From: Candidatus Omnitrophota bacterium
GTDB lineage: Bacteria; Ratteibacteria; UBA8468; MWAK01
Direction of reading: 5' to 3'
DNA: 58,226 nucleotides
Assembly (NCBI GenBank): GCA_043797665.1
Contig: JAZDPL010000039.1
Location: forward strand, 1 to 58,226
Part shown: positions 5,378 through 48,417 of the stretch, piece after piece
Layout of the letters: each line of letters begins with the position of its first letter
Numbering within the stretch: position 1 is the stretch's first letter
Notes under the pieces: generated by a model
The model's input: only the letters and a program-made list of their open reading frames with translations
What the model was told of the DNA's origin: nothing
The model's database searches: none
Program-made: the position numbers and the translations under genes

Positions 5378-5401
5378 CACGGCGCTCTGCCCCCCGAATA
5401 T

Positions 5402-5430
5402 TTGAAAAAGTTGTATTTTCTTGGTAAAAT
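5402..5430 (+). promoter_or_regulatory. Putative sigma70 promoter of the DGR target gene
   Basis: TTGAAA-17 nt-TAAAAT with extended TG. Confidence 0.45.
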
Positions 5431-5507
5431 AGATATACAAAAGATAAACCAATCAATTCGTTTCTGGATTGCGCATGTCTCCTGGGGAGACACCTGGAGA
5501 ATGGCGA

Positions 5508-7637
5508 ATGAGTGAGAAAATAACAGGCTTTATAAAAAGAGGAGGATTGGTATCCGGGTTAATTCTTTTAATCTTTTTGATGAGTGGAGGGGTTTTTGGT
5601 CAGGAAACGACACCGCGCATCTGGGTAGTGTCTGTAGGAGTTAGCAAGTATGTTCAGGCGTTCCAGACATTAGAGCAGGCGGCAGAAGGCGCCAGGGATG
5701 TGGCGAAAGCCTTGGAGAAATGCCAGCCCTCTTCCACCAGAACTTATATCTTGACCACAGATTCGCCGGATGAAACCTTTCAACCCACCCGCGGGAATAT
5801 TGCGAAAATCCTGGGTAAACTATCACAGCAGGTTTCCTTGAACGACCTGGTTATTTTCTATTTTTCCGGTCATGGGGTAGATATAGAAGGTCAGCAATTA
5901 TTATTAATGAAAGATGCTGACCTGATAGATAAAGATACCCGCGATGTTACGACAATTCCTCTCACCTATCTGCGGGATAAGTTAGAAGGATTACCCTGTC
6001 AGGGCAGGTTATTATGGTTGGATGCCTGCCGGGAGACAGTAGAGTCTTTAAGTAAGAAAGCAGGGATAAGTGATGTAATGATGAGCAAAGATTTTCTGAC
6101 CAACGGTGGAGGGTGGAGTATACAGGAGGGAAGAGTATCAGCGACACTGTTCAGTTGCCGGGAAGGACAAAAGAGTTACTATGGCAAAGAAGGCTCATTC
6201 TTCAATCGGGCCCTGGTAGAAGGATTATCTGGCAAGGCGGCTGACCCGATGGGACAGGTAACATTATCATCCCTGGTTTCCTATATTCAAGGACGGGTAC
6301 CTGTTCTTCTGAAGGAAGAAAAGGGTGGGGAGTTTCAACAACAGCCAGTAATCCTGCCGGGAGTACCAGAAGTTATTCTCAGTCCGGCGCCCCCTGCCTA
6401 CATTGCCTGCCCGCCGTTCAGCGGTGAGAAATACGGAGACTTATTTGCTGAGACACTGCAGACCCAGTTAGCAAAATCAAGAGCAGTAAATTTAGTGGAG
6501 CGGATACAATTGGATAAAGCGCTGAATGAAATCAAACTAAAGATATCCGGCATTACCGAAGATGCTCTTAATCTTGAAGCCGGGAAGATGGTTGGAGCAA
6601 AGTATGTTCTGATTGGTTCCTCAAAAACTGCACCAGGGAATCAACTCTGTGTAAATGTAAGATTGGTTGAAGTAAAGACCGGAAAACAAATATCCGGAGT
6701 TGCTGGTAAATGTACCTTTAATCCCGAAGACAAAGACGAGTGGGAGGCCGCCCTGAATAATTTATCCGGGGAACTCCTTGCCGGTATGCAGGGAGAAGTA
6801 ATACCGGAAGAGACCCGGAGAGCAAGTTTACCGGTTAGTAAAAAATCTACTGGAAAGAAGGAGATAACCATAGACTTAGGCAAGGGAATAACGATGGAGA
6901 TGGTCCTTATCCCGCCAGGAGAGTTTCTGATGGGCTCTCCAGAAGGAGAAGGGGGCAATGACGAACACCCCCAGCACAAGGTAAAGATAACCAAATCCTT
7001 CTATTTAGGTAAGTATGAGGTAACCCAGGAGCAATGGGAAGCAGTTATGGGTAACAACCCCAGTAACTTCAAAGGAGTAAAGAACCCGGTAGAACAGGTT
7101 TCCTATGATGTCTGCCAGGACTTCCTCAGGGGACTAAACCGATTATTCCCTGGTAAGAACTTCCGGCTGCCCACTGAGGCCGAATGGGAGTATGCAGCCC
7201 GGGGCACCGATAGCCGAAGGTATCCCTGGGGAGATACCTGGGACAGGACCAGACTAAATTCCGCCTCTAAATGGGCCGGTATGGATATTATGAACAATGA
7301 TGATTGGAATAAATACTATTATAAAAGCGGTAAAGGAGAAGCATTCAAAAACTCAAGAACAGAGTCAGTAGGAAGTTATGAAAACGGGACGAGCCCTTTT
7401 GGTCTCTATGACATGGCTGGCAATGTTTGGGAGTGGTGCCGTGACTGGTATGATGCCAACTACTACCAGAATAGCCCAACTGAAGACCCGGAAGGACCTC
7501 CTACTGGCAGTTTCCGTGTTCTGCGCGGCGGCTCCTGGGGCATCGATGCTAACTACTGCCGGCCTGCCAGTCGCGACTGGATCGCCCCGACGAACTGGCT
7601 CAGCCTCGACGGGTTCCGCTGCGCTTCGTCGCCATAG
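5508..7637 (+). CDS. DGR target protein: signal/TM segment + caspase-like (peptidase C14) domain + CsgG/FlgO-like domain + FGE-sulfatase (CLec) domain with C-terminal VR
   Basis: Hydrophobic N-terminus GLVSGLILLIFLMSGGVFG. FYFSGHG and WLDACR give a His/Cys dyad. LVERIQLDKALNE...AGKMVGAKYVLIGS...VRLVEVKTG is CsgG-like. PPGEFLMGS, RLPTEAEWEYAARG, YDMAGNVWEW and RVLRGGSW are FGE motifs. Start placed at ATG 5508 after GGAGA; the ORF track begins at 5469. Confidence 0.9.
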   Translation: MSEKITGFIKRGGLVSGLILLIFLMSGGVFGQETTPRIWVVSVGVSKYVQAFQTLEQAAEGARDVAKALEKCQPSSTRTYILTTDSPDETFQPTRGNIAKILGKLSQQVSLNDLVIFYFSGHGVDIEGQQLLLMKDADLIDKDTRDVTTIPLTYLRDKLEGLPCQGRLLWLDACRETVESLSKKAGISDVMMSKDFLTNGGGWSIQEGRVSATLFSCREGQKSYYGKEGSFFNRALVEGLSGKAADPMGQVTLSSLVSYIQGRVPVLLKEEKGGEFQQQPVILPGVPEVILSPAPPAYIACPPFSGEKYGDLFAETLQTQLAKSRAVNLVERIQLDKALNEIKLKISGITEDALNLEAGKMVGAKYVLIGSSKTAPGNQLCVNVRLVEVKTGKQISGVAGKCTFNPEDKDEWEAALNNLSGELLAGMQGEVIPEETRRASLPVSKKSTGKKEITIDLGKGITMEMVLIPPGEFLMGSPEGEGGNDEHPQHKVKITKSFYLGKYEVTQEQWEAVMGNNPSNFKGVKNPVEQVSYDVCQDFLRGLNRLFPGKNFRLPTEAEWEYAARGTDSRRYPWGDTWDRTRLNSASKWAGMDIMNNDDWNKYYYKSGKGEAFKNSRTESVGSYENGTSPFGLYDMAGNVWEWCRDWYDANYYQNSPTEDPEGPPTGSFRVLRGGSWGIDANYCRPASRDWIAPTNWLSLDGFRCASSP
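7512..7634 (+). repeat. DGR variable repeat (VR), ending in the invariant GC-rich/IMH segment
   Basis: 123-nt ungapped match to 8679-8801 with 17 mismatches, all opposite template A; the last 24 nt are identical. Confidence 0.97.
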
Positions 7638-7664
7638 ACTCATTACCCTTTGCCCTTTTACCCT

Positions 7665-7680
7665 CCCGCCGTAAGGCGGG
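7665..7680 (+). promoter_or_regulatory. Post-VR hairpin/cruciform (DGR homing determinant candidate)
   Basis: CCCGCC-GTAA-GGCGGG perfect stem about 30 nt downstream of the VR; absent after the TR. Confidence 0.7.
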
Positions 7681-7739
7681 CCGCGCTAATTTTTTAACTA
7701 TTACCAAATATGCTATAATTGTATTGCCAGGAGGCCAAT

Positions 7740-7955
7740 ATGTCACCAGCGAAAGTGTTAATATCTGAGGCTCTTCAATTAAAACCCGCGGAACGGTTTA
7801 TCGTTATTGAAGCTTTAATCAAAAGTTTAGATGTTCCCGATCCTCAAATTGAAAAAGCGTGGGCAGAGGAAGCGGGAAAAAGATTGAAAGCCTATAAGAG
7901 CGGAAAACTTCCGATTGTATCCTTTAAGGATATGTTCGGAAAAGAAACCGCATGA
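7740..7955 (+). CDS. Putative addiction-module antitoxin (TIGR02574-like)
   Basis: EALQLKPAER...LIKSLD...IEKAWAEEA..RL pattern. ATG 7740 follows AGGAGG, with TGCTATAAT upstream. Overlaps the toxin start (ATGA). Confidence 0.8.
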   Translation: MSPAKVLISEALQLKPAERFIVIEALIKSLDVPDPQIEKAWAEEAGKRLKAYKSGKLPIVSFKDMFGKETA

Positions 7956-8254
7956 AAATAGGGATTGTAAGGATTGCCCACCAGGAATTTTTAGAAGCCA
8001 AGGATTTTTATGAAATTGAACAGCCTGGTTTGGGCATACGTTTTGAAAAAGAAATAAAACATTCCCTTTTACGTATAAAGCAATATCCTTCTGCCTGGCC
8101 ACCTGAATCCAAAGAAATACGCCGTTATTTCGTCCATAAATTCCCGTATAAAATTCTTTATTCTGTTCAAAAAGATATTATCGTAATACTTGCGTTTGCG
8201 CACTTACATAGAAAACCATATTACTGGGCAGATAGATTAGAAGTAACTTCTTGA
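7952..8254 (+). CDS. RelE/ParE-family toxin
   Basis: EFLEAKDFYE..PGLG.RF, IRRYFVHKFPYKILY, ILAFAHLHRKPYYW. Confidence 0.85.
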   Translation: MKIGIVRIAHQEFLEAKDFYEIEQPGLGIRFEKEIKHSLLRIKQYPSAWPPESKEIRRYFVHKFPYKILYSVQKDIIVILAFAHLHRKPYYWADRLEVTS

Positions 8255-8319
8255 GGGTTGCCGAACAATGAAGTTAATAATTATGGCTAAAGGAAATGCA
8301 AAATTTTTCTTGAAAATTT

Positions 8320-8670
8320 ATGAATGAGCAAACTGAACTGACAGTAATAACCAAAACTTACGACTTGATACTCTGGTGGCTTCCTCAGATTATTAAGTTT
8401 CCGAGAGCATACCGTTTTTCGCTCGGTAACAGGGTAGAAGACTTATTGTTTGAAATTCTGGAAGACTCAATTGAGGCTAAATATATGAAGGATAAAATAG
8501 AAATATTACAAAGGATAAACCTGAAACTGGAAAAACTAAGATTTCTGACCCGGATTTGTAAGGACCTGCATTTTATCAATCTGAACAAATACGAGTTTGT
8601 CGCAAATCAGGTAACCGACATCGGAAAGTCTGTTGGCGGGTGGTTACGCCAGCAGAAGGGGGTAGGTTAA
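8320..8670 (+). CDS. avd: DGR accessory variability determinant Avd (four-helix bundle)
   Basis: KTYDL..W, KFPR.YRFSLG.R, LEKLRFL.R, C-terminal IGKSVGGW; lies directly upstream of the TR. Confidence 0.92.
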   Translation: MNEQTELTVITKTYDLILWWLPQIIKFPRAYRFSLGNRVEDLLFEILEDSIEAKYMKDKIEILQRINLKLEKLRFLTRICKDLHFINLNKYEFVANQVTDIGKSVGGWLRQQKGVG

Positions 8671-8678
8671 ATTGGGCG

Positions 8679-8801
8679 TTCCGTGTTCTGCGCGGCGGCT
8701 CCTGGAACAACAATGCTAACAACTGCCGGCCTGCCAATCGCAACAGGAACGACCCGACGAACAGGAACAACAACAACGGGTTCCGCTGCGCTTCGTCGCC
8801 A
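8679..8801 (+). ncRNA. DGR template repeat (TR)
   Basis: Adenine-rich copy of the VR with 13 AAY codons and 31 A in total; located between avd and the RT. Confidence 0.95.
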
Positions 8802-8995
8802 AGTCTCTTTATATCCCGAAGTGCCTTCGGGATACCGCCAGAATTAGTAAGTTTACGGACTTACTGAGCGTGCATCTGTTGAGTCTAAAACCTGTCTCCT
8901 GTGCCGAATTCCCTGAATGGATGAGGCCGAATATAAAAACAGTCAGCGGCAACCAGTAGCCTTAGAGAGCGAAAGTTGCCGCTGCACTCACAGCA
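8802..8995 (+). ncRNA. Structured TR-RT spacer (3' part of the DGR RNA)
   Basis: Stems TATCCCGAA/TTCGGGATA (8812-8834) and CAGCGGCAAC/GTTGCCGCTG (8944-8984). Confidence 0.55.
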
Positions 8996-10036
8996 ATGGC
9001 GGAAACATACCGAAATCTCTACGATAGGCTTTGCTCATTTGAAAACCTTCTGCTGGCAGGCAAGAAGGCACAAAAGGGTAAAAAATTTAAAGAGAATACC
9101 GCCAGGTTCAATTTTTATCTGGAACCGGAGTTGTTAAGATTGCAGGACGAACTATTAAGCCAGACCTATCAGCCAGGCAAATACCGAAAGTTTGTAGTCT
9201 ATGATCCCAAGAGACGGCTCATCAGCGCCGCCCCTTATCGGGACAGGGTCGTTCATCATGCTTTATGCAACATAATCCAACCGCTTTTAGAAAAAAGTTT
9301 TATCTTTGACACCTATGCCAATCGCATAGGCAAAGGAACTCATAAGGCGATTATACGATGCCAGGAATTTAGCCGAAAGAATAAATATGTTCTGAAATTT
9401 GATATCGTAAAATATTTCGACAGTATAGACCGAAAAATCCTTTTTCAAACAGTAGCCCGGAAGATAAGAGACGAAAAGGTGTTGTGGCTTGTCCGGCAGA
9501 TTTTGGCTCTGTCCAAAAATTACCTGGACGACTCAAACCAACCTTCCCTGTTCCCGGATGTTAAAGGAATGCCTATCGGCAATCTTACCAGCCAGTTCTT
9601 TGCCAACCTCTACCTGGATGGTTTCGACCATTTCGTAAAAGAACGCCTTGGATGCCGGTATTACATCCGCTATGTTGATGATTTCGTCATCCTTGACGAC
9701 GATAAGAAGAAACTGCGGGAAATAAGAAACAAGGTAGAAGGATACCTTGCCGGAATTCACCTGAAGATACATCCGGGCAAAACGCAGATTTTCCCGGTAA
9801 TGCAGGGTGTAGAATTTCTGGGTTTCAGAATTTTCCCCACGCACCGCCTCTTAAAAAAGCAGAATTTTTTCCATTATAGAAGGCATTTGAAGTGCTTGCA
9901 TAAACTATACACTGAAGGTAATCTGAGTTTCGCAAAGTTAAAACAATCTGTAGATTCTTGGGTTGCACATGTGCGTTGGGGTGACACCTGGGGATTGAGA
10001 AAGAAGCTGTTTGCCGAATTCCCTATGTCTATTTGA
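8996..10036 (+). CDS. DGR reverse transcriptase
   Basis: PKRRLISAAPYRDRVVHHAL, GKGTH, FDIVKYFDSI, GMPIGNLTSQFFAN (DGR-type SQ motif), RYVDDF, FLGF; 346 aa with no maturase or endonuclease tail. Confidence 0.95.
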   Translation: MAETYRNLYDRLCSFENLLLAGKKAQKGKKFKENTARFNFYLEPELLRLQDELLSQTYQPGKYRKFVVYDPKRRLISAAPYRDRVVHHALCNIIQPLLEKSFIFDTYANRIGKGTHKAIIRCQEFSRKNKYVLKFDIVKYFDSIDRKILFQTVARKIRDEKVLWLVRQILALSKNYLDDSNQPSLFPDVKGMPIGNLTSQFFANLYLDGFDHFVKERLGCRYYIRYVDDFVILDDDKKKLREIRNKVEGYLAGIHLKIHPGKTQIFPVMQGVEFLGFRIFPTHRLLKKQNFFHYRRHLKCLHKLYTEGNLSFAKLKQSVDSWVAHVRWGDTWGLRKKLFAEFPMSI

Positions 10037-10055
10037 ATGGAGTATACACTTTTAC

Positions 10056-11266: not shown

Positions 11267-12505
11267 ATGAAAAAAAAGTATGTTTTAGCGGGAGCAAGCG
11301 GCCGGGCACTCTATATGTACGGTCTGCCCCTGAAGGAAAGGTTTAGTGACGTAGCGGAAGTGGTAGGAATTCTGGACGTTAACCCGATCCGCGCCGAAAA
11401 GGTAAGGGAGATGGCTGGTTTGACCTGTAAGGTCTATTCCGATTTTGATGCGATGGTTAAGGAGACTAAGCCGGACGTCTCCATCGTCACTACGGTTGAC
11501 CGGTTTCATCACCTCTATATAGTTAAGTCTTTAGAGGCGGGTCTTGATGCGATTACGGAAAAGCCGATGACCATTGATGCGGAAAAGTGCAACGCCATCC
11601 TGGAGGCAGAGAAGAAGACCGGCAAAAAGGTAATCGTTACCTTTAACTACCGGTTTACACCTTACATCACCCGGATAAAGGAGTTGCTGTTGGAGGGTGC
11701 GGTAGGCAAGATTCTCAGTGTTCATTTTGAGTGGCTCCTGGACACTTCCCACGGTGCGGATTACTTCCGCAGATGGCACCGCCGGCTGGAAAACTCCGGC
11801 GGACTTTTGGTTCATAAGGCAACCCACCATTTTGACATAGTCAACTGGTGGTTGGAAGAAGAGCCGGAGACGGTAATGGCGTACGGCTCATTAAGATTTT
11901 ACGGACCAACCCGCAAAGAACGGGGGGAACGTTGTCTGGACTGCAAATATAAAAAAACCTGCGAGTTTTACTTTGATTTAACCGCTGAGGGTGGATTTCC
12001 TTCAAAACAACTTTACCTGGAGACGGAGAAGGCTGACGGCTACTACCGGGACCGGTGCGTTTTCAGCGAGGAGATAGACATTTACGACACGATGAGCGTT
12101 AATGTCAAGTACTCCGGCGGCGCGTTCTTAACCTATTCCCTGACTGCCCACAGCCCTTACGAGGGGTTTAAGGCATCCCTCAACGGAACTGCGGGCCGGA
12201 TGGAAATCGCCGAGTATCACAGCGGTCAGCGGGTAAGCGAACCAGTCTATTACCTGGACCTTTATAACCGAAAGGGAGAAAAGGTCAATTACACGGTACC
12301 CAAGGCAGTCGGCGGGCACGGCGGCGGCGACGAAAAACTTCAGGATATGCTTTTCCGGGGCGGTATCCCTGACCCTCTGGGTCACCAGGCCGGTTCTTAT
12401 GCCGGAGCCATATCCATCCTGATTGGTGCCTCTGCCAACAAATCTATTGTCGAAGGAAAACCAATCCGGCTCAAGGACCTGGTTCCCTTAGACCGGTATA
12501 AGTAG
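11267..12505 (+). CDS. Gfo/Idh/MocA-family oxidoreductase (YteT-like)
   Basis: EKPM, FNYRF, HGADYFRRWH, GGLLVHKATHHFD, GHGGGD. Confidence 0.85.
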   Translation: MKKKYVLAGASGRALYMYGLPLKERFSDVAEVVGILDVNPIRAEKVREMAGLTCKVYSDFDAMVKETKPDVSIVTTVDRFHHLYIVKSLEAGLDAITEKPMTIDAEKCNAILEAEKKTGKKVIVTFNYRFTPYITRIKELLLEGAVGKILSVHFEWLLDTSHGADYFRRWHRRLENSGGLLVHKATHHFDIVNWWLEEEPETVMAYGSLRFYGPTRKERGERCLDCKYKKTCEFYFDLTAEGGFPSKQLYLETEKADGYYRDRCVFSEEIDIYDTMSVNVKYSGGAFLTYSLTAHSPYEGFKASLNGTAGRMEIAEYHSGQRVSEPVYYLDLYNRKGEKVNYTVPKAVGGHGGGDEKLQDMLFRGGIPDPLGHQAGSYAGAISILIGASANKSIVEGKPIRLKDLVPLDRYK

Positions 12506-12578
12506 GGGCTTGATTCATCAAGCCCGCGGGTCGGATAAACCTGTCCCTGTGTGTAGTAAACAGGGATCCGACCCCTAC
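12502..12578. repeat. GTAG-type REP doublet carrying a nested 27-nt insertion
   Basis: GTAGGGGCTTGATTCATCAAGCCCGCGGGTCGGATAAA[27 nt]TCCGACCCCTAC; supplies the TAG stop of the upstream gene. Confidence 0.9.
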
Positions 12579-12583: not shown

Positions 12584-14038
12584 ATGGATATTGAGAAGTT
12601 TGCAGGTTTACTACCCGGATATCATCCGTACCCGGAGTCGTTCCGCCAGAGAGGCGGGGCCTCTTTGCCGGGAGGCGGGGCCTCTTTTATAATGGTGCGG
12701 GATGAGCAACAGAAGTACCTGGCGGTATCAGGTGAAGGAAGCAAAAAATTTGAAGGTACTGTTTTAAACGACAGCCTCAGGATGTGTCCGCTGAACGGAC
12801 GCAACGCCGCACGCATCCGGGAAATCTTTCCGGAACTTAAACCGGTACCAGCCAGCCAAAAAATTTCCTTTGGGTTTGGTGACCGTTTGGGTTTAGCCAC
12901 GCCCGGCCATATAAAAAGTTTAGGAGCCCGGCCGGTCTTTCCTGTTTTTGCCCAGCAGTCGGTCCGGGAGAACGCCCGCACCAAAAGGACTCCCCGGGAT
13001 GTCGTGGACGATGCCTCCTGGGGCTGCCTTCAGGCCGGATATATTGGTCCCTTTGGTGCTGACGCCGACCACCTGAAGGAGATTTCCCAATTAAAAGAGG
13101 CGGTATCCGCAGGCTATTCTATGTTCACCATAGACCTCTCCGACTATATCAAAAACCCGGCGGAGATGCCTCCGGAAGAGGAAGCGCGCTGTTTAGCTTT
13201 AATACCTAATATCAACGAAGTTGAGGACTTCTTCCAGGAGAAAGAGTATACCATTGCCGGCAAATCCTACCGGTTCTCCTTACCGGAGATAAGACGGCTG
13301 ATTGTTACCTTTGTGCCGGGTTTAAGATTTGCGATTGAGTGCTGCCAAATTCTGGAAGCGTCTTTGCCCGCGTTTGACTTTGAAGTTTCGGTTGACGAGA
13401 CCAAACAGACCACCACACCTTTAGCCCACATCTTTGTCGTGGAGTATCTGCGGAGGAACAAAGTTCCCTTCACCAGCCTTGCCCCAAAATTCCCCGGTGA
13501 GTTCGAAAAGGCGATTGATTATAAAGGAGACCTTGCGGAATTTGAAGAGATCTTCCGCCGACACACCGAAATCTGCCGGTTCTTTGGCGGGTATAAGATG
13601 AGTATCCATTCCGGAAGCGATAAGTTTGCGGTCTACCCCATCATCCGGAAAATCAGCGACGCCTTCCACGTCAAGACCGCAGGAACCAGTTGGCTCCAGG
13701 CGGTCAAGACTCTGGCGTTGAGAACGCCTTCTTTTTACCGCCGGATTCATCAATGTGCGCTCAACAACATCAGCCAGGACCGGATAGGATACTCGGTCAA
13801 CCTTGATATAAATAAGATTCCACCGCTGGATAGCATTGAGGACGGTGGTCTCACCACCCTGTTTTCCCTCCCGGATTGCCGGCAGCTGCTTCACATTACC
13901 TACGGTTCGGTTCTGGCTCAGTTCCGGTCGGAAATGTTTGGTTCGCTCCAACGCTATGAGGAAGACCATTACCGGTTAATAACCGAACACCTGAACAAAC
14001 ACCTGGATTTACTTCTTCCCGGATGTCATTCTGAGTGA
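12584..14038 (+). CDS. uxaE: Tagaturonate/fructuronate epimerase UxaE family
   Basis: SFGFGDRLGLATPGH, AQQSVRE, GADADHLK, DFEVSVDE, HSGSDKF, HVKTAGTSW, RQLLHITYGSVL. Confidence 0.88.
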   Translation: MDIEKFAGLLPGYHPYPESFRQRGGASLPGGGASFIMVRDEQQKYLAVSGEGSKKFEGTVLNDSLRMCPLNGRNAARIREIFPELKPVPASQKISFGFGDRLGLATPGHIKSLGARPVFPVFAQQSVRENARTKRTPRDVVDDASWGCLQAGYIGPFGADADHLKEISQLKEAVSAGYSMFTIDLSDYIKNPAEMPPEEEARCLALIPNINEVEDFFQEKEYTIAGKSYRFSLPEIRRLIVTFVPGLRFAIECCQILEASLPAFDFEVSVDETKQTTTPLAHIFVVEYLRRNKVPFTSLAPKFPGEFEKAIDYKGDLAEFEEIFRRHTEICRFFGGYKMSIHSGSDKFAVYPIIRKISDAFHVKTAGTSWLQAVKTLALRTPSFYRRIHQCALNNISQDRIGYSVNLDINKIPPLDSIEDGGLTTLFSLPDCRQLLHITYGSVLAQFRSEMFGSLQRYEEDHYRLITEHLNKHLDLLLPGCHSE

Positions 14039-14080
14039 AACGAAGAATCTCGAGATCCTTCGCTGGCGCTCAGGATGACA
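14024..14080. repeat. TGTCATTC-type palindromic doublet
   Basis: TGTCATTCTGAGTGAAACGAAGAATCT..GAGATCCTTCGCTGGCGCTCAGGATGACA; provides the last codons and stop of uxaE. Confidence 0.85.
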
Positions 14081-15206: not shown

Positions 15207-15263
15207 TGTCATTCTGAACGGAGTGAAGAATCTCGAGATCCTTCGCTGGCGCTCAGGATGACA
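15207..15263. repeat. TGTCATTC-type palindromic doublet
   Basis: Close copy of 14024-14080. Confidence 0.85.
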
Positions 15264-15291: not shown

Positions 15292-16332
15292 ATGGCTAAG
15301 GTGAAGAGAAATTTTTCAATGAAGGCGTACTGGGACAAGATTACCGAAGACTGGGAACCGGTCCTTAAGTTCAAGGGAAAGACCAAGGCTGACTGGGAGG
15401 AGTGGCGCATCAAGGCTTCTGCCAAATACCTGGAACTTTTGGGCCCTTTTCCCGGAAGAGTTCCCCTGGAAGCGATGGTTGAGTCTTCGGTAGAAGACGG
15501 GGACTTGATTCGGGAACGGGTGGTCTTTAATTCCGAAGAGTTTATGTCGGTGCCCTGCCAGGTCCTTAAGCCTAAGGATATGAAACCGGACCGGAGTAAC
15601 CCGGCGATTCTGTGCAGTCACGGACACGGTCCGTTCGGGAAGGATGCGGTGGCTGGAGTAAAGTCGGGAAGCGAACTGCTCGCCAGCATCAAGGAGCATA
15701 ATTACAACTACGCCGAGCAGATGGCCAAGGCGGGTTTTCTCACCATCGCGCCGGACTTGCGGGTTTTCGGTGAACGCCGGGACGGGCTTGACCCGTTTCC
15801 CGGACGGGACCCCTGCAACGTCAACTTTATCAAAGGCGCCCTTTTGGGTATCTACACCCTGACCCTTAACATCTGGGATATGATGTGCTGTGTTGACTAC
15901 CTGGAGACCAGGCCTGAGGTTGATAAGAACCGGATCGGTATGATGGGACTCTCCCAGGGCGGAACGATGACCACCTTTGCCACCGCGGCGGAACCCAGAA
16001 TCAAGGCGGCCGACATCATCGGCTACGCCGGCCCCTGGCGGGAGTTCGGGATAAAGAGGGCAAACTTCTGTGGTTCCCAGATAGTACCGGGCATCCACCG
16101 GTACTTTGACACCGACGACATCCAGGGTCTAATCGCACCCCGGCCCCTCCTCCTGGAGATGGGTATCTATGACAACTGCTTCTTCATCCAGCATATGCTC
16201 CAGGGCTACCAGGGCGTGAAAAATATTTACCGGTCCGCCGGCGTTGAAGACCGGCTCTGGGCAGACATCTACCCCGGTCCCCACGCCTTTGCCGGCAAAA
16301 AAGCCTTTGAATTTTTTAAAAAGTACTTGTAG
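15292..16332 (+). CDS. Alpha/beta hydrolase (acetylxylan esterase / dienelactone hydrolase-like)
   Basis: HGHG, APDLRVFGER, DYLETRPEVD..RIGMMGLSQGG, IAPRPLL, GPHAF. Confidence 0.8.
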   Translation: MAKVKRNFSMKAYWDKITEDWEPVLKFKGKTKADWEEWRIKASAKYLELLGPFPGRVPLEAMVESSVEDGDLIRERVVFNSEEFMSVPCQVLKPKDMKPDRSNPAILCSHGHGPFGKDAVAGVKSGSELLASIKEHNYNYAEQMAKAGFLTIAPDLRVFGERRDGLDPFPGRDPCNVNFIKGALLGIYTLTLNIWDMMCCVDYLETRPEVDKNRIGMMGLSQGGTMTTFATAAEPRIKAADIIGYAGPWREFGIKRANFCGSQIVPGIHRYFDTDDIQGLIAPRPLLLEMGIYDNCFFIQHMLQGYQGVKNIYRSAGVEDRLWADIYPGPHAFAGKKAFEFFKKYL

Positions 16333-16378
16333 GGGCTTGATTTATCAAGCCCGCGGGTCGGATGAATCCGACCCCTAC
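16329..16378. repeat. GTAG-type REP doublet
   Basis: GTAGGGGCTTGATTTATCAAGCCCGCGGGTCGGATGAATCCGACCCCTAC; supplies the TAG stop of the upstream gene. Confidence 0.9.
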
Positions 16379-16388
16379 AATTGTTAAC

Positions 16389-27417: not shown

Positions 27418-28722
27418 ATGATTATTGAAAGAGACCTGCTCCAAAGGATACAGCCTTTTTTGAAAAGGGATGAGTTTATCTCTATCATCGGACCCCGGCA
27501 GTCAGGGAAGACTACCTTTTTGCAACTACTGAAGGAGTATTTAACCAGAGAAGTGAAGGCGGGTAGCGAATCTATTCAGGAGGTTACTTTTGAAGACAGA
27601 AAACTGTTCGTGGAATTTGAAACTGACCCTGTCCGGTTTATCCGTTCATTTTTCCCGCGCAACACCAGCCAAGAATTATATTTGATGATTGACGAATTTC
27701 AATATGCCGAAGACGGTGGACAAAAATTAAAACTAATCTACGATACAATAAAAGGTATAAAGATTATCATTACCGGTTCCTCTTCTTTAGATATAAAAGC
27801 AAAAGTTGGAAAGTTTATGGTTGGCCGGATGCTGAATTTTTATCTCTATCCGTTCAATTTCCGGGAGTATCTGAAGGTACACGACCAGAGATTGGAGAGA
27901 GTGTATACAGAAAACAACGGTAAAGTCGTTGAGTATCTTCTGAAAGGGAGACAATTCAAAATAAAGAGCGGTCGGGACCTTCTAAGTGCAGAGTTTATCT
28001 CCCATTACGAGAGATTTTCGATTTGGGGAGGATATCCTGCGGTGGTTTTGACCAAAGGAGAGGCTGAACGCAAAAAGGTTCTTACGGATATTTACAACAA
28101 CTATATATTGAAAGACATAAAAACCCTTTTGGAACTGGCAACCGAAAAAAATCTCTTTTTATTGTCTCAATACCTGGCGACCCAGACTGGCAATATTGTG
28201 GTATATCAAAACTTAAGTCAGGCCACTGGTTTGAACTATCGTAATCTCAAAAAGCATCTGAATATTCTTGAGGAGACATTTATTTGTCGCGAAGTAAAAC
28301 CCTTTTTTAAAAACAGGCAGAAGGAACTTTCCAAAAACCCGAAGATATACTTTCTCGATATGGGATTCAGAAATAACCTGATGGAAAATATGAATAGCCT
28401 GGAGAAGCGTTCTGATGCCGGAGCCATCGTGGAGAACACCTGTTTCATAAGGTTGAACGAACCGTATGAAGGGATAAACAAAATAAACTTCTGGAGGACA
28501 AAAACAGGTGCAGAAGTGGATTTTATTTTGCACTCAGAAGGCAATGTTGTACCTGTTGAGATAAAGTACTCACCTTTTACCGGAGAGAAATTATCAAAAA
28601 GTTTTGTCAGTTTTATTGACTCCTTTAAGCCAGCCTATGGCTTGATCTTAACCAAAGATTTCTGGGGAGAAGTACGCCGGGACAAGACGAAAATCCTATT
28701 TGTTCCTGTTTATTATTTATAA
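27418..28722 (+). CDS. AAA_14 ATPase with DUF4143 / PD-(D/E)xK C-terminus
   Basis: GPRQSGKTT, IDEFQ, TGSS, GGYP, PKIYFLDMG, EVDFI..PVEIK. Confidence 0.88.
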   Translation: MIIERDLLQRIQPFLKRDEFISIIGPRQSGKTTFLQLLKEYLTREVKAGSESIQEVTFEDRKLFVEFETDPVRFIRSFFPRNTSQELYLMIDEFQYAEDGGQKLKLIYDTIKGIKIIITGSSSLDIKAKVGKFMVGRMLNFYLYPFNFREYLKVHDQRLERVYTENNGKVVEYLLKGRQFKIKSGRDLLSAEFISHYERFSIWGGYPAVVLTKGEAERKKVLTDIYNNYILKDIKTLLELATEKNLFLLSQYLATQTGNIVVYQNLSQATGLNYRNLKKHLNILEETFICREVKPFFKNRQKELSKNPKIYFLDMGFRNNLMENMNSLEKRSDAGAIVENTCFIRLNEPYEGINKINFWRTKTGAEVDFILHSEGNVVPVEIKYSPFTGEKLSKSFVSFIDSFKPAYGLILTKDFWGEVRRDKTKILFVPVYYL

Positions 28723-28782: not shown

Positions 28783-30126
28783 TCAACTATTATTCAGGAG
28801 GGAAGGAATTAACGAGGTTACGAAGGCAGGCAAAAAATAGACTTTGAACCCATTGGTGGATACTTCTGTCCAGTTATCTTTGTTTATTACCACCGCAAAA
28901 GGGGACTGGTATTGCTTAACAAAGGAAGAGACAGAAGCCGGGACCTTTTGTAGTGAGCCTGATTTGACCTCAATCGGAATCACTTTTTCGTCGGACCGCA
29001 GGATAAAATCTATTTCCGTCTGGTGCTGGGTACGCCAGTATAATATTTCCATACCCGGCTTTAAACTTTTTTTCAACTCATTGTAGACCGCGCTTTCCTG
29101 CAGGCGACCTTTGTCCAAACGCTGGTTGAAGGGAGAAAAGTTGTTGAGCAAACAATTTCTGATTCCATTGTCATAAAAAACCGTCTTTTTCTCCCGGGAG
29201 AGTTCTTTCCTTTTGTTGGTGTAGAAAGGGTTGAGCAGCCAGTTAACAAAGGTGTTCTCCAGGATAAAGAGAGCCTTTTCCAATTCTTTCCGGGACAGAC
29301 GCAGGGTATTTGACAAGGAATGAATATTGCTCAGCGAGGAACTTTCCTCTGCCAGGAGAACCATAAGTTTGTTAAAAACCGAAAGGTTTTCTGAACCCAC
29401 CAACCCTTTAATATCCTTCTGAAGATAAGAACTGCAGATTTCTTCCAGGAGTGCCCGACGTTCCCGGAAGTCTGGTTCTAAGATTATCTTAGGCATTCCG
29501 CCCCAAACCGTGAACTCTTCAAACAGCCGGACAAAGATACTGCGCAATGGAACGCTGAGGGGTTTTATAACGTTGACTTCTTCAAAGTAGGCCGCCTCTT
29601 TAAGGTTTTGAAAACGGAGAAATTCCACAAAGGTCAGAGGGAAGATATTGATAACGCGTTTTCTGCCCACCAGTGACTCTTGAAGGTTTTTCTGGATTTC
29701 CACCGAAGAGGAGCCGGAAGCAACGGTCTTAATTTGAGGAAAGTTGTCAATGATTGCTTTCAGGAATTTACCCGCCTGGGGGATATATTGAAACTCGTCG
29801 ATAAAGAGATAAAGATAATTGGATGAGATCCTTCGCTGACACTCAGGATGACATACTACGTCATTTTGGATAGGCTCGGTTGTAAGTCTTACTCCTTGTG
29901 CGGTCAAATACTCCAAAAAGCCTTCCGGACCATTGGAGAAGAGGGACAGGTGGGAGGGCAATTCTAAATTGAAATAATAGGTTTTTTGGTCCTCTTTTTT
30001 CAGGTCTTCTTCTATCTTCTTTATCAGCGTGGTTTTTCCCACTTGCCGACTTCCGGTCAGAATCAGGCAGGGTTCTTTATTAAGGGTTGCCTTCAGATAC
30101 TCTAAAATTTCCCGCTTTATATACAT
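28783..30126 (-). CDS. AAA_14 ATPase with DUF4143 C-terminus
   Basis: GSRQVGKTT, IDEFQ, SGSS, GGMP, EIDFI..PIEVKS; start MYIKRE; contains a repeat-derived insert. Confidence 0.85.
   Translation of the reverse strand: MYIKREILEYLKATLNKEPCLILTGSRQVGKTTLIKKIEEDLKKEDQKTYYFNLELPSHLSLFSNGPEGFLEYLTAQGVRLTTEPIQNDVVCHPECQRRISSNYLYLFIDEFQYIPQAGKFLKAIIDNFPQIKTVASGSSSVEIQKNLQESLVGRKRVINIFPLTFVEFLRFQNLKEAAYFEEVNVIKPLSVPLRSIFVRLFEEFTVWGGMPKIILEPDFRERRALLEEICSSYLQKDIKGLVGSENLSVFNKLMVLLAEESSSLSNIHSLSNTLRLSRKELEKALFILENTFVNWLLNPFYTNKRKELSREKKTVFYDNGIRNCLLNNFSPFNQRLDKGRLQESAVYNELKKSLKPGMEILYWRTQHQTEIDFILRSDEKVIPIEVKSGSLQKVPASVSSFVKQYQSPFAVVINKDNWTEVSTNGFKVYFLPAFVTSLIPSLLNNS
29825..29853. repeat. Half copy of the TGTCATTC-type repeat inside the ATPase gene
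   Basis: GAGATCCTTCGCTGACACTCAGGATGACA, read in frame as CHPECQRRIS. Confidence 0.8.
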
Positions 30127-30206
30127 AATTTTACCGGATTCAGTAAATCTCACTAGTGATATTTATAGTTTACGCCAATTTTCAGCAAATGTCAAGCTGG
30201 TCTGCC

Positions 30207-31247
30207 TTAGGTCAGGAAATGGGAGGGGCGGTGTCCGCAGAGGAATTCGCCTGCGGTCATCTTCCTTTTGCCGGCAGGCTGTAATTGGGTAATTAAGAGA
30301 GCGGTCTCACCGCCGCAGGCGACCAGAATCCCGGTTTTGTCCGCTTTCAGGACCGTACCGGGTGTTATCCCCCCCACCTTTCCTCCCCCCTCTCCCGATT
30401 CAACGGGAAGGGGACCCGCATCAAGGGGGAGGAAAATGTAGGGGTCGGATTTATCCGACCCGCGGGCTCGATGAATCGAGCCCCTACTTTCTTCTGAGGG
30501 GGAGACAACTGCCTGCCAGATAATTACTGGAGCCGGGCTATCCGGCAGAAAGGTATAGGCGTGGGGCCATTGGACAAAGGCGCGTACCTTTGCTGAAATT
30601 TCATTTGCATCCTTACCCCAGTCAATTTTTCCTTCCTCTTTCTTTATCTTTGGCGCGTAGGTGGCGTCCGCTTCTTTCTGGTCGACAAAAAAGGCAATGC
30701 CTTTCTCTATCTGCGCTATTCCTTTTACGGTCAGGTCTGCGCAGGGTTCTGCCAAACGATCGGTCAGCGTTACCGCATCGTCTTCCGGAAGTATGGGTAA
30801 TTTTTCCTGGATAAGAATCGGTCCGGCGTCCATCCGTTCCGTAATTCTGATGACCGTTACGCCGGTCTCGGTCTCCCGGTTTAAGAGCGCCCGCTCTATC
30901 GGTGCGGCGCCCCGGTATTTCGGCAGAAGCGACGGGTGGATGTTGAGAATATTCTTACCGGGGATTTCCAGAATTCCTCTTTTAATCATCTGGCCAAAGG
31001 CGGCGACCAAAATAATATCCGGCGGGCACTGATTTATCTGTCTGATGAAATCAGTCTGATTGATGTCCGGAGTGGTCAGGACCGGCAGGTTCAGAGAGAG
31101 TGCTAATTCCTTGACCGGTGTGGCGCGGGTTTTCAACCCCCGGCCGGCCGGTTTGTCCGGCGCGGTCACCACCAGAACCACCCGGTCCGCTAACCTTCGC
31201 AATGCCGGTAGACCAATCTCGCCGCTTCCCACAAACAAAATTTTCAT
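30207..31247 (-). CDS. fmt: Methionyl-tRNA formyltransferase with a repeat-derived insertion
   Basis: PDKPAGRG, NIHPSLLPKYRGAAPI, MDAGPI, TYAPKI.KEEG.IDW, LQPAGKR.M. Confidence 0.93.
   Translation of the reverse strand: MKILFVGSGEIGLPALRRLADRVVLVVTAPDKPAGRGLKTRATPVKELALSLNLPVLTTPDINQTDFIRQINQCPPDIILVAAFGQMIKRGILEIPGKNILNIHPSLLPKYRGAAPIERALLNRETETGVTVIRITERMDAGPILIQEKLPILPEDDAVTLTDRLAEPCADLTVKGIAQIEKGIAFFVDQKEADATYAPKIKKEEGKIDWGKDANEISAKVRAFVQWPHAYTFLPDSPAPVIIWQAVVSPSEESRGSIHRARGSDKSDPYIFLPLDAGPLPVESGEGGGKVGGITPGTVLKADKTGILVACGGETALLITQLQPAGKRKMTAGEFLCGHRPSHFLT
30369..30487. repeat. Compound palindromic insertion in fmt (C/G-run hairpin plus GTAG REP doublet)
   Basis: 30369-30433 nested CCCC/GGGG hairpins; 30438-30487 GTAGGGGTCGGATTTATCCGACCCGCGGGCTCGATGAATCGAGCCCCTAC. 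Confidence 0.85.
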
Positions 31248-31295
31248 ATATGGTCGTTAATACAAACGCATTAAATAGATTTACATCATAAAACT

Positions 31296-31345
31296 GCAGG
31301 GGCTTGATTCATCAAGCCCGCGGGCGCCATGAATGGCGCCCCTAC
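31296..31345. repeat. GTAG-type REP doublet (flanked by a 14-bp inverted repeat)
   Basis: GCAGGGGCTTGATTCATCAAGCCCGCGGGCGCCATGAATGGCGCCCCTAC. Confidence 0.85.
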
Positions 31346-31374
31346 GTTAAATAATTTAATGCGTTTGATTCGTT

Positions 31375-32433: not shown

Positions 32434-32460
32434 ATGCCTCCAATTTTACTCCCCATTTTT

Positions 32461-32510
32461 GTAGGGGTTTGATTTATCAAACCCGCGGGTCGGATAAATC
32501 CGACCCCTAC
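32461..32510. repeat. GTAG-type REP doublet
   Basis: GTAGGGGTTTGATTTATCAAACCCGCGGGTCGGATAAATCCGACCCCTAC. Confidence 0.9.
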
Positions 32511-32519
32511 GGCGTTATA

Positions 32520-33645: not shown

Positions 33646-34812
33646 CTAAGGGAAAATAGCGGCGACACTTTTCCAATTGAGCACCTGGGCTAAGGTTCTT
33701 TTTTGATTTTCGTCTCCGTTATATATTAAAAATGAGCCGTTACTTTCTCCCCCAGCCAGGATTTCCCAGTATTTCAATCCTTTAAAAAAGTCCTCCGTAA
33801 TGGTTTTGCCGGACTTTATTTCTACCCGGAGTAGTGCGTCGGGCATTTCTATTATGCAGTCAATTTCGTGGCCGGTTTTATCTTTCCAGTAATAACAACT
33901 TGGTTCCATCCCCCGGTTGAGTCTATATTTTATTATTTCTGATAAAATAAAGGTTTCAAAGAGACTTCCTTTTAGATAATGGACCGAAATCTGCGCCTTA
34001 TTCTGAATACCCAGAAGGGCGCAAACCAGGCCGGTATCGTAGAAATATAGTTTGGGCATCCTTATTAAACGTTTGTTAAAATTCTTATAATAGGGTTTTA
34101 AGAGATAAATGATGTAACTGGACTCAAGAACTGAAATCCATGCTTTTGCGGTATTATGTGTGATTCCGCAATCGTTGCCCAAAGACGATAAATTAAGTGC
34201 CTGGCCGGTTCGACCAGCACACATCCTTACGAATTTCTGGAAAGTATTCAGGTCTGAGATATTCTTTATCAATCGGGCGTCCCTTTCTATATATGTCTGA
34301 ATGTAATTTGGATACCAGTCGTGAGGAGGGATTTTTCGATCATATATTCGGGGATAAAATCCTTTTAAGATATAATCCTCTGAATTAGGCATTTCATAGG
34401 AAGTTCCTATTAATTCTTCCAGACTTAGCGGTGCCAGAGTTAAAAGCGCGGTACGTCCGGCTAAAGTTTGAGATATTTTTTCCTGGAGCAGAATATTTTG
34501 TGAACCGGTAAGAATGAATTGTCCTCCCGTTTGTCGTTTATCAACCATGGTCTGAATGTAGGAAAGGAGATGGGGTACTCTTTGGACTTCGTCGATGATG
34601 GCCCCTTTGTGATGGGTGGAAAGAAAACCTCGCGGGTCACTGAGGGCAAATTCTCTGGTGTCTAAATCTTCCAGAGACACGTATGGCATTTGTGGGAAGG
34701 CCATTTTTACCAGGGTTGTTTTGCCTGACTGTCGGGGTCCCACTACGGTAATAACCGGGAATTTCCGCGCTAAAGTTTTTAATTTTGTGGACAGGATTCG
34801 TTTAATCAGCAT
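33646..34812 (-). CDS. AAA_14 ATPase with DUF4143 C-terminus
   Basis: GPRQSGKTT, IDEVQ, LTGSQ, GFYP, PKLYFYDTG, EIDC..VEIKS. Confidence 0.9.
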   Translation of the reverse strand: MLIKRILSTKLKTLARKFPVITVVGPRQSGKTTLVKMAFPQMPYVSLEDLDTREFALSDPRGFLSTHHKGAIIDEVQRVPHLLSYIQTMVDKRQTGGQFILTGSQNILLQEKISQTLAGRTALLTLAPLSLEELIGTSYEMPNSEDYILKGFYPRIYDRKIPPHDWYPNYIQTYIERDARLIKNISDLNTFQKFVRMCAGRTGQALNLSSLGNDCGITHNTAKAWISVLESSYIIYLLKPYYKNFNKRLIRMPKLYFYDTGLVCALLGIQNKAQISVHYLKGSLFETFILSEIIKYRLNRGMEPSCYYWKDKTGHEIDCIIEMPDALLRVEIKSGKTITEDFFKGLKYWEILAGGESNGSFLIYNGDENQKRTLAQVLNWKSVAAIFP

Positions 34813-34891
34813 AAAAACATTATATCTTCTTTCGGACAAATTGTCAATCTCATTGACAATCTGTCCGGTCCTAATTAGACTCTGTAGAAAG

Positions 34892-46160: not shown

Positions 46161-47159
46161 GTGAAGATAGGGTTATTGGGGTATTCCGGCAGCGGTAAGA
46201 CCACGCTGTCCGCAATTCTGGCTGGTAAGAGGGTGGAGAGTTTTGACCCTCTTAAGCCGGCAATGTTGGCAATAAAGTTGGTTGATGTGCGCCTGAAACG
46301 GTTAGCCGAAATTCTGAAATCACCCAAATCCTCCTCTCCCGAAGTTACTCTTTTTGACTTTAAGGGCGTACCGAAAGAGACCGGGTTTGGCGAAAAGGAA
46401 CTGGCCGGTTTCCTGGAGGTGGATTTGGTGTTACAGGTGGTAGGTGGATTTCCTGAAGGCGGTCAGCCGGCCAGCGACCTGGAATCCCTCCAGTTAGAAC
46501 TTATCTTTCATGATATTGAACGTCTGTCCGGTTTAACCGAAAAACGGAACGCCGAGATAAAGCAGGGCAGACGCAAAGATAACCCACTTGAAGAAGGTGT
46601 TTTAGAGAAAACAAAAAACTGGTTGGAATCAGAAAAGCCGGTACGGCTCCTTCATTTGACGCCGGGCATCTTTAATCCGCCGGAGAAGGTTTTTCTTTCC
46701 TCCCTGGGTTTGATTACCACTAAGGATATGATGGTTCTGTTAAACGGGAAGGCCGAACCTTCCGGGAAGACCGGGTCTTCGGAATTTTCGGGAACCAGCC
46801 AAAGATTTTCTTTACCAACCTTATCCTGGGACCTTCCGGACGAAACCTCCCGGCAGGAAAAATCTTCTCAATTCTGGTCTAATATCCTTTCGGCAGCCGG
46901 TTTAATCACCTTCTATACGTTCAACGCAAAAGAGGTCAGAGCCTGGTTCTTACGTAAAGGCGCGACTGCTTTAGAGGCAGCCGGCCAGATTCATACCGAC
47001 ATTGCGCACGGGTTCATCCGGGCCGAGGTGGTTAACTACGCAGACTTTGAGCGGTTGGGTTCTTCCGTCGCCTGCCGGGAGAAAGGGCTTTTGCGGTTAG
47101 AAGGCAAGGAATATCCGGTTGCCGACGGCGACCTCCTCCAGATTCGTTTCTCTCGTTAG
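46161..47159 (+). CDS. ychF: YchF/Obg-like P-loop NTPase with DUF933/TGS C-terminus (divergent)
   Basis: GYSGSGKT, DxxG, EVRAW..GATA.EAAGQIHTD..GFIRAEV, RLEGKEY.V.DGD. Confidence 0.7.
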   Translation: MKIGLLGYSGSGKTTLSAILAGKRVESFDPLKPAMLAIKLVDVRLKRLAEILKSPKSSSPEVTLFDFKGVPKETGFGEKELAGFLEVDLVLQVVGGFPEGGQPASDLESLQLELIFHDIERLSGLTEKRNAEIKQGRRKDNPLEEGVLEKTKNWLESEKPVRLLHLTPGIFNPPEKVFLSSLGLITTKDMMVLLNGKAEPSGKTGSSEFSGTSQRFSLPTLSWDLPDETSRQEKSSQFWSNILSAAGLITFYTFNAKEVRAWFLRKGATALEAAGQIHTDIAHGFIRAEVVNYADFERLGSSVACREKGLLRLEGKEYPVADGDLLQIRFSR

Positions 47160-47169
47160 TCCCCTATTT
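47098..47169 (+). repeat. Direct repeat, copy 1 (3' end of the ychF-like gene)
   Basis: Matches 48163-48238 with 5 substitutions and a 4-nt indel. Confidence 0.9.
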
Positions 47170-47180
47170 CCCCCCCTTCC

Positions 47181-47373
47181 TTAGATACGCACCCGGACTT
47201 CTTCTCCGATCTTTTCTGATAGATAAACCTTGATCAGGGATTGGTAAGGGGTCCCTTTTTTATTGGCGATGGTTTTTAACTGGTTCAGAAGATAGCGGGG
47301 CATCTTGATAGAAATCATCTTTCTCTTCCACCTCATCTTTAAATCCCGGCCCGCTCTTTAATCTTCTCTTCAT
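47181..47373 (-). pseudogene. BrnA/CopG-like antitoxin remnant with internal deletion
   Basis: MKRRLKSGPGFKDEVEE is joined out of frame to MISIKMPRYLLNQLKTIANKKGTPYQSLIKVYLSEK. Confidence 0.65.
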
Positions 47374-47618
47374 AAAATCTTCTCTCCTTTCGGCTCATTA
47401 TATACCATATTTTTTTATTTCGTCAAGGGCAGCGAATTTTTGTGTCCGCCCTTAGTATTTCAAGGAGAACCGATTACCTTACCAAACGCAAGTAGTTTTG
47501 CATTTGGTAATACTATATGCAAGTATGCAAGGGGAAAAGTATCCGGAAGGCAAAAATTAGGTTGTCTGCCGGGACATTTTTTTGATTTCCGGATAAACCC
47601 ATGTTATAATTATCTTGA

Positions 47619-47918: not shown

Positions 47919-47924
47919 AGAATT

Positions 47925-48149: not shown

Positions 48150-48162
48150 TCGGCTTCTACCA

Positions 48163-48407: not shown

Positions 48408-48417
48408 TTCTGCATGT

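Follow-up and report, generated by a model that had tools for sequence, protein, structure and literature searches.

A probably intact chromosomal diversity-generating retroelement with a caspase-bearing C-type lectin target in an uncultured Ratteibacteria lineage

Gene content and genomic setting

The window analysed here is the whole of a 58,226-nucleotide stretch of DNA from Candidatus Omnitrophota bacterium (Ratteibacteria; contig JAZDPL010000039.1, assembly GCA_043797665.1), and all positions refer to it. On one strand it carries a target gene that ends in a variable repeat (VR), a toxin–antitoxin pair, avd, a template repeat (TR), a structured spacer and a reverse transcriptase (RT) gene (Table 1), i.e. 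the parts of a diversity-generating retroelement (DGR). The preliminary description of this DNA did not cover the domain make-up of the target, the toxin–antitoxin pair or the RT stub that precedes the target.

Table 1. Positions of the features of the DGR and its upstream stub
Feature	Position	Strand	Remarks
3' stub of second DGR RT	5393..5515	+	about 38 codons match, E 1e-6; stop overlaps target start
Target gene	5508..7637	+	709 aa; start agrees with database record; signal peptide, Peptidase_C14 caspase, CsgG-like domain, FGE-type CLec with VR
Probable Sec signal peptide	5508..5600	+	by eye and hydropathy
Caspase (C14) domain	5631..6353	+	His122, Cys174 intact; Asp172 kept; Gly61 at TbMCA2 S1 Asp95
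CsgG/LpoB-like alpha-beta domain	6390..6800	+	Pfam match to part of domain, 27.5 bits, cut-off 20.8
FGE-sulfatase-type C-type-lectin (CLec) fold	6897..7634	+	without Cys-bearing insert of true FGE enzymes
Variable repeat (VR)	7512..7634	+	13 codons changed
IMH-like segment	7609..7645	+	GC-rich VR 3' end identical to TR, then imperfect 11-nt extension beyond stop
Pyrimidine-rich 7-8-nt repeats, then hairpin	7641..7680	+	hairpin 7665-7680: 6-bp all-GC stem, loop GTAA
Antitoxin	7740..7955	+	Unstab_antitox PF09720; nested passenger
ParE-family toxin	7952..8254	+	nested passenger, after antitoxin, before avd
avd accessory gene	8320..8670	+	116 aa; NF033474 105.8 bits (cut-off 80); PF22296
Template repeat (TR)	8679..8801	+	31 A, 13 AAY codons; IMH*-like end to about 8811
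TR-RT spacer	8802..8995	+	structured RNA, covarying 10-bp helix about 8846-8869
DGR reverse transcriptase	8996..10036	+	346 aa, catalytic motifs intact

As described beforehand, avd and RT are intact: both frames are open, and the RT contains GNLTSQ as well as YVDD. No clear ribosome-binding site lies upstream of either gene, and no second RT or second caspase was found in the genome. The best PDB match of the RT is the 328-aa 'Reverse transcriptase' 8ub7 (6.6e-60), which we take to be the Bordetella bRT; the best group II intron RT scores 3e-21. In phylogenetic placement, the check proposed earlier, the RT groups among DGR RTs with TR/VR pairs from Elusimicrobiota and Firestonebacteria, and in a quick tree it forms a three-row clade (SH-aLRT 96) with the RTs of two loci, L010 and L024, which have A-specific TR/VR pairs and a gene order identical to that of the present cassette. 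Could it nonetheless be a group II intron-like or defence RT lying beside a chance gene duplication? The best NCBIfam match, TIGR04416, points that way, at 158.9 far below its cut-off of 300; this reading is refuted because all TR–VR mismatches fall on TR adenines (see below), the presence of Avd and the placement among TR/VR-bearing RTs also speak against it, and its probability is negligible.

The DGR forms a 4.7-kb low-GC island flanked by two sugar-metabolism genes, which adjoin each other with 49 nt between them in a relative (G002); such an empty site is seen in one of the three family genomes that possess both flanking orthologues. A low-GC island that includes a toxin–antitoxin pair and is patchy in the phylum (Avd scores above its cut-off in 1 of 65 genomes) might suggest a prophage or other mobile element diversifying a host-recognition protein, as in BPP-1. 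Against this, none of the eight flanking genes matches a PHROG phage family, the island holds neither integrase nor transposase, its target bears a signal peptide and is neither a tail-fibre protein nor one with an Mtd-like domain, and the TR/VR pattern was found in no viral contig; that the DGR belongs to a prophage or other mobile element is thus largely refuted and highly improbable, and the earlier attribution to a cellular, non-phage DGR on the chromosome holds.

The cassette was probably acquired horizontally from a pool common to Elusimicrobiota and Firestonebacteria, and it now sits behind the remnant of an earlier, related DGR. The stub is 66% identical to the L010 RT and 53% to the resident RT. 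Within it, at 5402-5430, lies the strongest sigma-70-like match in the region; a promoter here is only a lead, because this is the best of nine matches where 7.1 +- 3.0 are expected by chance.

Repeats, cis elements and the question of activity

Recomputation of the ungapped 123-nt TR/VR pair reproduced every figure reported before, and both quoted peptides were correct. Each of the 17 mismatches has an adenine on the TR side (7 A>G, 7 A>T, 3 A>C), for which the hypergeometric probability by chance is 8.9e-13 given 31 A among 123 positions, and 0 of the 92 non-A positions differ. The recounted TR composition (Table 1) also agrees: no A substitution can yield a stop, and the AAY codons alone allow 15^13 = 1.95e15 protein variants, a space that grows to 2.8e17 once the remaining A-bearing codons are included. 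Perfect adenine specificity is in itself ordinary, since 26 of the 55 related loci with A-biased repeats are equally clean; these 55 share the same anatomy and come from a set of 77, of which 64 have an avd match.

The IMH-like segment was delimited by the definition in Wu et al. (PMC5758913, in part). Downstream, the pyrimidine repeats and hairpin recur in the same layout 3' of the VR in L010 and L012, and hairpin position and stem are conserved with L010; on such 7-8-nt repeats the literature held nothing relevant among the matches listed. With its short stem and GTAA loop the hairpin departs from the BPP-1 consensus (7-10 bp, GRNA), its energy is not unusual (z -1.1), and a post-VR hairpin is not universal, being reported for 34% of DGRs (PMC5758913, in part). 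The idea that it is a genome-wide REP was dropped; the exact hairpin occurs once in the genome. Of 200 shuffled versions of the spacer, 198 fold less well than the native sequence, which is 66% identical to the L010 spacer over 145 nt. In its helix, 9 of 10 pairs show changes on both sides among eight loci, as counted on the same alignment of eight hand-picked rows that yielded the helix. Rfam gave no match, and one of the two pattern forms of a GGTAG-type spacer motif was without enrichment.

The locus thus has the TR/VR pair, RT class, Avd and in-frame 3' VR in a CLec target by which a DGR is defined, along with IMH/IMH*-like ends and a structured spacer as judged by sequence and covariation. 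As a whole it is very probably an intact chromosomal avd-TR-RT-type DGR that harbours two passenger genes. The BPP-1-type architecture claimed for it earlier stands for the order target-avd-TR-RT; it does not extend to the target, which is not of the Mtd class, or to the two unrelated genes nested inside. By the mechanism established for BPP-1, an avd-TR-spacer RNA would be bound by RT and Avd, cDNA would be primed from the spacer with misincorporation opposite template adenines, and this cDNA would replace the VR, guided by the IMH and the downstream hairpin. Up to 17 codons might in this way be rewritten on the CLec binding face, at the end of a presumably exported, caspase-bearing protein.

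Is the DGR still active? The preliminary description held it to be recently or currently active. The identity of all non-A positions, which bounds TR/VR divergence at < ~8% over 37 silent sites, loosely supports recent activity. It is possible but doubtful that the DGR is genuine and now dormant, having written this VR once and then fallen silent, for instance because the nested toxin–antitoxin pair altered avd-TR-RT transcription or the hairpin drifted. The gap from VR to avd is 686 nt here, whereas 43 of 44 related loci have gaps of 61-262 nt, GNA triloops and not GTAA cap 15 of the 19 hairpins found, the genome contains the RT stub and five frozen paralogues, and recent activity has been reported for only 50-75% of DGRs per group (Roux et al., PMC8144416, in part). 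On the other hand, all frames are open, the catalytic motifs and spacer helix are intact, the non-A positions are unchanged, and ORFs nested within the cassette are a known feature of various DGR architectures (PMC5758913, in part).

The frozen paralogues emerged from the proposed search for remote TR targets, which covered the assembly at 86% completeness: these five dispersed CLec genes have 12-30 non-A differences each, and are therefore not current targets. Together with the RT stub, they imply that an earlier DGR has decayed in this genome. An NNY third-position footprint was rejected as proof that the present DGR wrote them: in a control, scores of 9-13 of 13 were likewise reached by the CLec ends of unrelated metagenome contigs and of other genomes in the phylum. 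None of 15 metagenome pattern matches was a conspecific locus; all were distant FGE genes that lack both RT and Avd. The clusters of target, RT and Avd contain a single member each, which reflects missing data, since the cluster of the flanking URO-D gene likewise has one member.

The target protein and its possible role

The N-terminus of the target, with a basic N-region, a single hydrophobic stretch and no lipobox Cys, and with no further membrane segment behind it, indicates probable export via a Sec signal peptide. The caspase fold and its His-Cys dyad were confirmed, and each of 10 close homologues, at 38-48% identity, retains H122, D172 and C174. In the S1 pocket, as compared with TbMCA2, the equivalent of Asp211 (D172) is retained and that of Asp95 is Gly61, next to Glu60; Gly occupies this position in all nine alignment rows that cover it. 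A true FGE enzyme was ruled out by a 3-residue gap and the absence of a matching Cys pair relative to 6muj/2q17. Against TvpA the VR region can be aligned with no gap and ends at the identical C-terminal residue, and by this alignment the target is of the FGE/CLec (TvpA) class and not Mtd; the CLec part of the structure model has pLDDT < 50. A search for defence-system membership gave one weak PADLOC caspase match and no system.

What would variation at the tip of such a protein achieve? With roughly even confidence, we propose that cell lineages differ in the ligand- or substrate-docking specificity of the protease that each displays outside the cytoplasm. It is possible, if somewhat unlikely, that the DGR works but varies what is essentially a surface or periplasmic adhesin or receptor, in which the caspase is a housekeeping module or a scaffold carried along and protease output is uncoupled from the tip. 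The closest DGR targets contain no caspase (CsgG-CLec in L010; zinc ribbon-TM-CLec in L024), a caspase match lies near the DGR in only 1 of 77 related loci (L071), three of nine close homologues have the caspase-CsgG head without an FGE domain, and the Gly at the S1 Asp site fits as well. The invariance of the dyad and Asp172 over such divergence, and the recurrence of caspase-CLec fusions in several phyla, argue against this reading.

A more far-reaching version of the proposed variable-protease role is improbable when all its parts are taken jointly. The target would be an antibody-like exported protease of a small caspase subfamily with a remodelled S1 pocket; the tip, with about 1e17 possible sequences, would set its activation or substrate choice; the population would sample foreign proteins (phage parts, competitor or host surface proteins) extracellularly, cutting them or signalling by cleavage; and one DGR would have replaced another, the tail of the old RT now serving as the target promoter and the VRs of the orphaned paralogues fitting a different template.

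As a DGR the locus is ordinary, a clean example from an uncultured lineage with few DGRs; our literature search found no paper naming both Ratteibacteria and DGRs. Its value is that of a compact single-gene test case for the role of caspase-CLec proteins and for a possible control of the protease by its variable tip, and because an intact cognate TR and RT lie next to it, the library of natural variants is exactly definable.

Comparison with known systems

This kind of DGR is already well known, and the combination of an exported caspase with a hypervariable CLec has already been described in other bacteria. The cassette resembles that of Bordetella phage BPP-1 in its A-specific VR, IMH/IMH*-like ends, GC hairpin 3' of the VR and the closest solved relative of its RT (8ub7, taken as bRT). 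The BPP-1 cassette (mtd-avd-TR-brt; B1 of Wu et al., PMC5758913, in part) shares the order target-avd-TR-spacer-RT on one strand; the present DGR differs in being chromosomal, in its target, in its hairpin and in its nested pair, which makes it B1-X in the same notation. Closer still are L010 (Elusimicrobia bacterium CG1_02_37_114; RT 65% identical, TR identical at 84/105 nt, same post-VR tract and hairpin) and L024 (Ca. Firestonebacteria; RT 63%, TR 81/105 nt), both with similar spacers and, unlike the present cassette, no nested toxin–antitoxin pair.

Treponema denticola TvpA (PDB 2Y3C) is exported, as is predicted for the present target, and has a C-terminal VR in an FGE-type CLec, which Wu et al. 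class as target category 'b' (FGE-sulfatase, CLec1); an HRDC gene forms part of its cassette (architecture C), whereas the present target has caspase and CsgG-like domains in front, and targets b4 and b5 of that survey carry 'protease-related' domains (PMC5758913, in part). Caspase-CLec DGR targets have been published as the orthocaspase-CLec variable proteins of cyanobacteria (PMC7517822), and Thiohalocapsa has CHAT/TIR-CLec sensors (PMC10907252); in these systems too, a caspase-like protease is fused to a DGR-varied CLec tip, with dispersed paralogues. Those proteins are mostly predicted to be cytosolic, in NTPase conflict systems, whereas the present target has no STAND, MoxR or TIR neighbour and bears a signal peptide, a CsgG-like linker domain and Gly in place of the S1 Asp.

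Retroelement core and adenine-specific repeats

The locus is a real, intact, chromosomal diversity-generating retroelement (DGR). Its accessory gene avd matches NF033474 at 105.8 bits (cut-off 80), and the closest solved relative of its reverse transcriptase (RT), the only RT found in the source assembly, is 8ub7 (E = 6.6e-60), which we take to be the Bordetella bRT, with group II intron RTs far behind (3e-21). Placement of the RT in a phylogeny, as proposed in the preliminary description, was carried out as a quick tree of 68 rows comprising loci L010-L071 and the RTs of five of six relatives (it does not include L072-L086, nor L007, which yielded no segment); the resident RT groups with those of L010 (Elusimicrobia bacterium CG1_02_37_114, Elusimicrobiota) and L024 (Candidatus Firestonebacteria) with a support of 96. 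Among the 77 related loci that a genome scan yielded for comparison, 64 have an avd match and 55 an adenine-biased repeat pair as called by our own thresholds, and the order avd-template repeat (TR)-RT is found in 18 of the 50 having all three parts. In L071 (Pseudomonadota), two genes joining a caspase to a C-type-lectin fold (CLec) lie upstream of avd-RT-TR; in L021 the whole target-avd-RT-TR cassette stands in exact tandem duplicate with different variable repeats (VRs).

The resident VR and TR align without gaps and differ at 17 positions, every one facing a TR adenine (7 G, 7 T, 3 C), for which the chance probability is 8.9e-13. The TR holds 31 A and 13 AAY codons, no stop is reachable by A substitution, and the protein space encoded amounts to 1.95e15 (AAY codons) or 2.8e17 (all); the mismatch, A, AAY and stop results restate earlier claims, which recomputation reproduced. 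All 13 codons changed in the VR are changed non-synonymously. Of the TR adenines, 14 stay A in the VR and 7 read G, 7 T and 3 C, in agreement with the pooled related loci (46, 23, 24 and 7%). Besides this pair, the DGR part of the window holds no other long direct repeats. The absence of non-A differences sets a divergence ceiling of about 8% at 37 silent sites; equally clean pairs occur in 26 of the 55 related loci, and recent activity has been reported for 50-75% of DGRs (Roux et al., PMC8144416). A metagenome pattern scan and the protein clusters of target, RT and Avd gave no conspecific copy of the locus. The resident DGR is probably active at present, and retrohoming here would, by analogy, follow the BPP-1 steps as summarised in PMC12875486.

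Positions of the features discussed
Feature	Sequence	Positions
Island	window	~5378-10040
RT stub	window	5393-5515
Sigma-70 match in stub	window	5402-5430
Target gene	window	5508-7637 (+)
VR	window	7512-7634
Post-VR repeats	window	7635-7680
Antitoxin-ParE pair	window	7740-8254
avd	window	8320-8670
TR	window	8679-8801
RT	window	8996-10036
Sigma-70 look-alike in RT	window	9896-9924
REP-like double hairpins, family one	window	12497-12554, 16324-16381, 30433-30490, 31291-31348, 32456-32513, 54543-54600
REP-like double hairpins, family two	window	14024-14080, 15207-15263
AAA-ATPase paralogues	window	27418-28722, 28783-30153, 33646-34839
YchF-like repeat region	window	47098-48935
Second antitoxin/ParE pair	window	near 48424-48935
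Tandem CLec paralogues	G000 (source genome), C36	2858-5000 (-)
Caspase-CLec genes	L071	2209-6510
Duplicated cassette	L021	50-8883
Second DGR of the phylum (L002)	G021, C154	1-1474

Chromosomal setting and traces of other elements

On either side lie sugar-metabolism and URO-D-like genes, with no PHROG match among the eight scanned, which bears out the earlier view of a cellular, non-phage DGR. Their orthologues lie 49 nt apart in G002, another genome of the phylum, which delimits the island, and are non-adjacent in G007 and G008. The named relatives closest to the host's TrpB carry the labels Ca. Omnitrophota and Ca. Ratteibacteria, which makes the host a probable member of Ratteibacteria. Across 65 sampled genomes of the phylum, all of one class, Avd exceeds the cut-off in one, and the caspase-CsgG head of the target has weak or partial matches at most elsewhere; horizontal gain of the DGR is the simplest reading. 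L002, whose contig is too short to reveal an avd or target gene, has an RT that is 45% identical and belongs to a different RT branch, with an AAC-rich TR-like stretch directly after it.

The preliminary description mentioned neither the 3' stub of another DGR RT upstream of the target nor the antitoxin-ParE pair between target and avd. The stub is 66% identical to the L010 RT over 32 aa, versus 53% to the resident RT. It contains a sigma-70 match (10/12, with extended -10), and the same codons in the resident RT form a weaker look-alike upstream of the URO-D gene, neither being above regional chance. Five CLec paralogues bear VR-like ends (two on contig C36, one of them frameshifted, and one each on C56, C5 and C47) with 12-30 non-A differences; compared in register with 47 templates, three ends are closest to the resident TR and two to the L010 TR (12 and 15 versus 18 non-A differences). 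A 12-nt post-stop motif has three copies genome-wide, each directly behind such an end. These features hint at related DGRs that were present earlier and at targets that are now frozen, but a third-position test of this idea failed its control. The C36 paralogues stand in tandem, and an internal deletion with a frameshift has disrupted one of them; the small ribbon-helix-helix-like gene between them lies behind a hairpin-and-promoter stretch that also precedes the window antitoxin.

No counterpart of the antitoxin-ParE pair was found at the same place in the 77 related loci, a search that distant pairs would escape; a second such pair lies elsewhere in the window, and DGRs are known to carry nested ORFs that are not conserved (PMC5758913). 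Small toxin-antitoxin-like genes in that second region are flanked by a 63-nt direct repeat, which corresponds to the 3' end of a YchF-like gene; the ParE/antitoxin pair comes next. The window also holds two families of REP-like intergenic double hairpins and three AAA-ATPase paralogues of similar build, dispersed among metabolic genes.

Spacer helix and post-VR tract

The TR-RT spacer folds strongly (z = -2.7) and resembles that of L010; of the 10 pairs in its helix, 9 have changed on both sides across eight hand-picked loci, a count biased in the helix's favour because the structure was drawn from the same alignment. Pyrimidine-rich repeats 3' of the VR are followed by a 6-bp GC hairpin that departs from the BPP-1 consensus (PMC3240598) yet is kept in L010. 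Post-VR hairpins, which are not universal (34% of DGRs; PMC5758913), follow 19 of 63 VRs of this comparison set; 15 of the 19 GC-rich hairpins (L010-L086, 20-75 nt after the VR) have a three-base GNA loop in place of the four-base GRNA seen in phage DGRs. The repeats, with a period of 7-8 nt, occur 3' of the VR and not of the TR (45 nt after 63 VRs, L010-L086 plus the window), with autocorrelations of 0.36 and 0.42 versus 0.279 ± 0.009 in shuffles, the genomes being related and so not independent. They may be a cis element of this DGR clade that has gone unremarked; a literature search for such repeats after the VR showed nothing relevant among the papers listed.

The target protein and known DGR targets

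The target (709 aa from its ATG) comprises, from N to C terminus, a probable signal peptide, a Peptidase_C14 domain (the only C14 domain found in the source assembly), a CsgG-like domain and an FGE-type CLec. In fold comparisons its predicted model (mean pLDDT 70; <50 in the VR region) best matches MALT1, metacaspases and caspases, along with FGE and TvpA, the Treponema denticola DGR target; the last 79 residues of the target align ungapped with TvpA and are missing the Cys insert that true FGE enzymes have. The caspase-CsgG head recurs in nine close homologues that are 38-48% identical overall, six of which also have an FGE end, and His122, Asp172 and Cys174 are invariant among them and the target. 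Gly61 of the target aligns with the alpha-1 Asp that belongs to the S1 pocket, Asp95 in the metacaspase TbMCA2 (PMC4357240). This position is Gly in 9 of 9 close rows covering the site; 10 of 10 homologues that are more distant have Asp there, and the preceding residue is frequently acidic. What might such a protein do? We infer a protease that is exported and whose variable tip serves for docking or sensing.

The main text of PMC11661182 mentions neither caspase, CsgG nor these phyla, and our literature search met no paper naming both 'Ratteibacteria' and 'DGR'. FGE-type CLec domains form the largest class of DGR targets, including two compositions with protease-related domains (PMC5758913), and the caspase-CsgG-FGE composition may already be among the targets in the figures or supplement of that study. 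Cyanobacteria have orthocaspase-CLec variable proteins together with remote paralogues (PMC7517822), and Thiohalocapsa has caspase-like CHAT targets and exported targets (PMC10907252).
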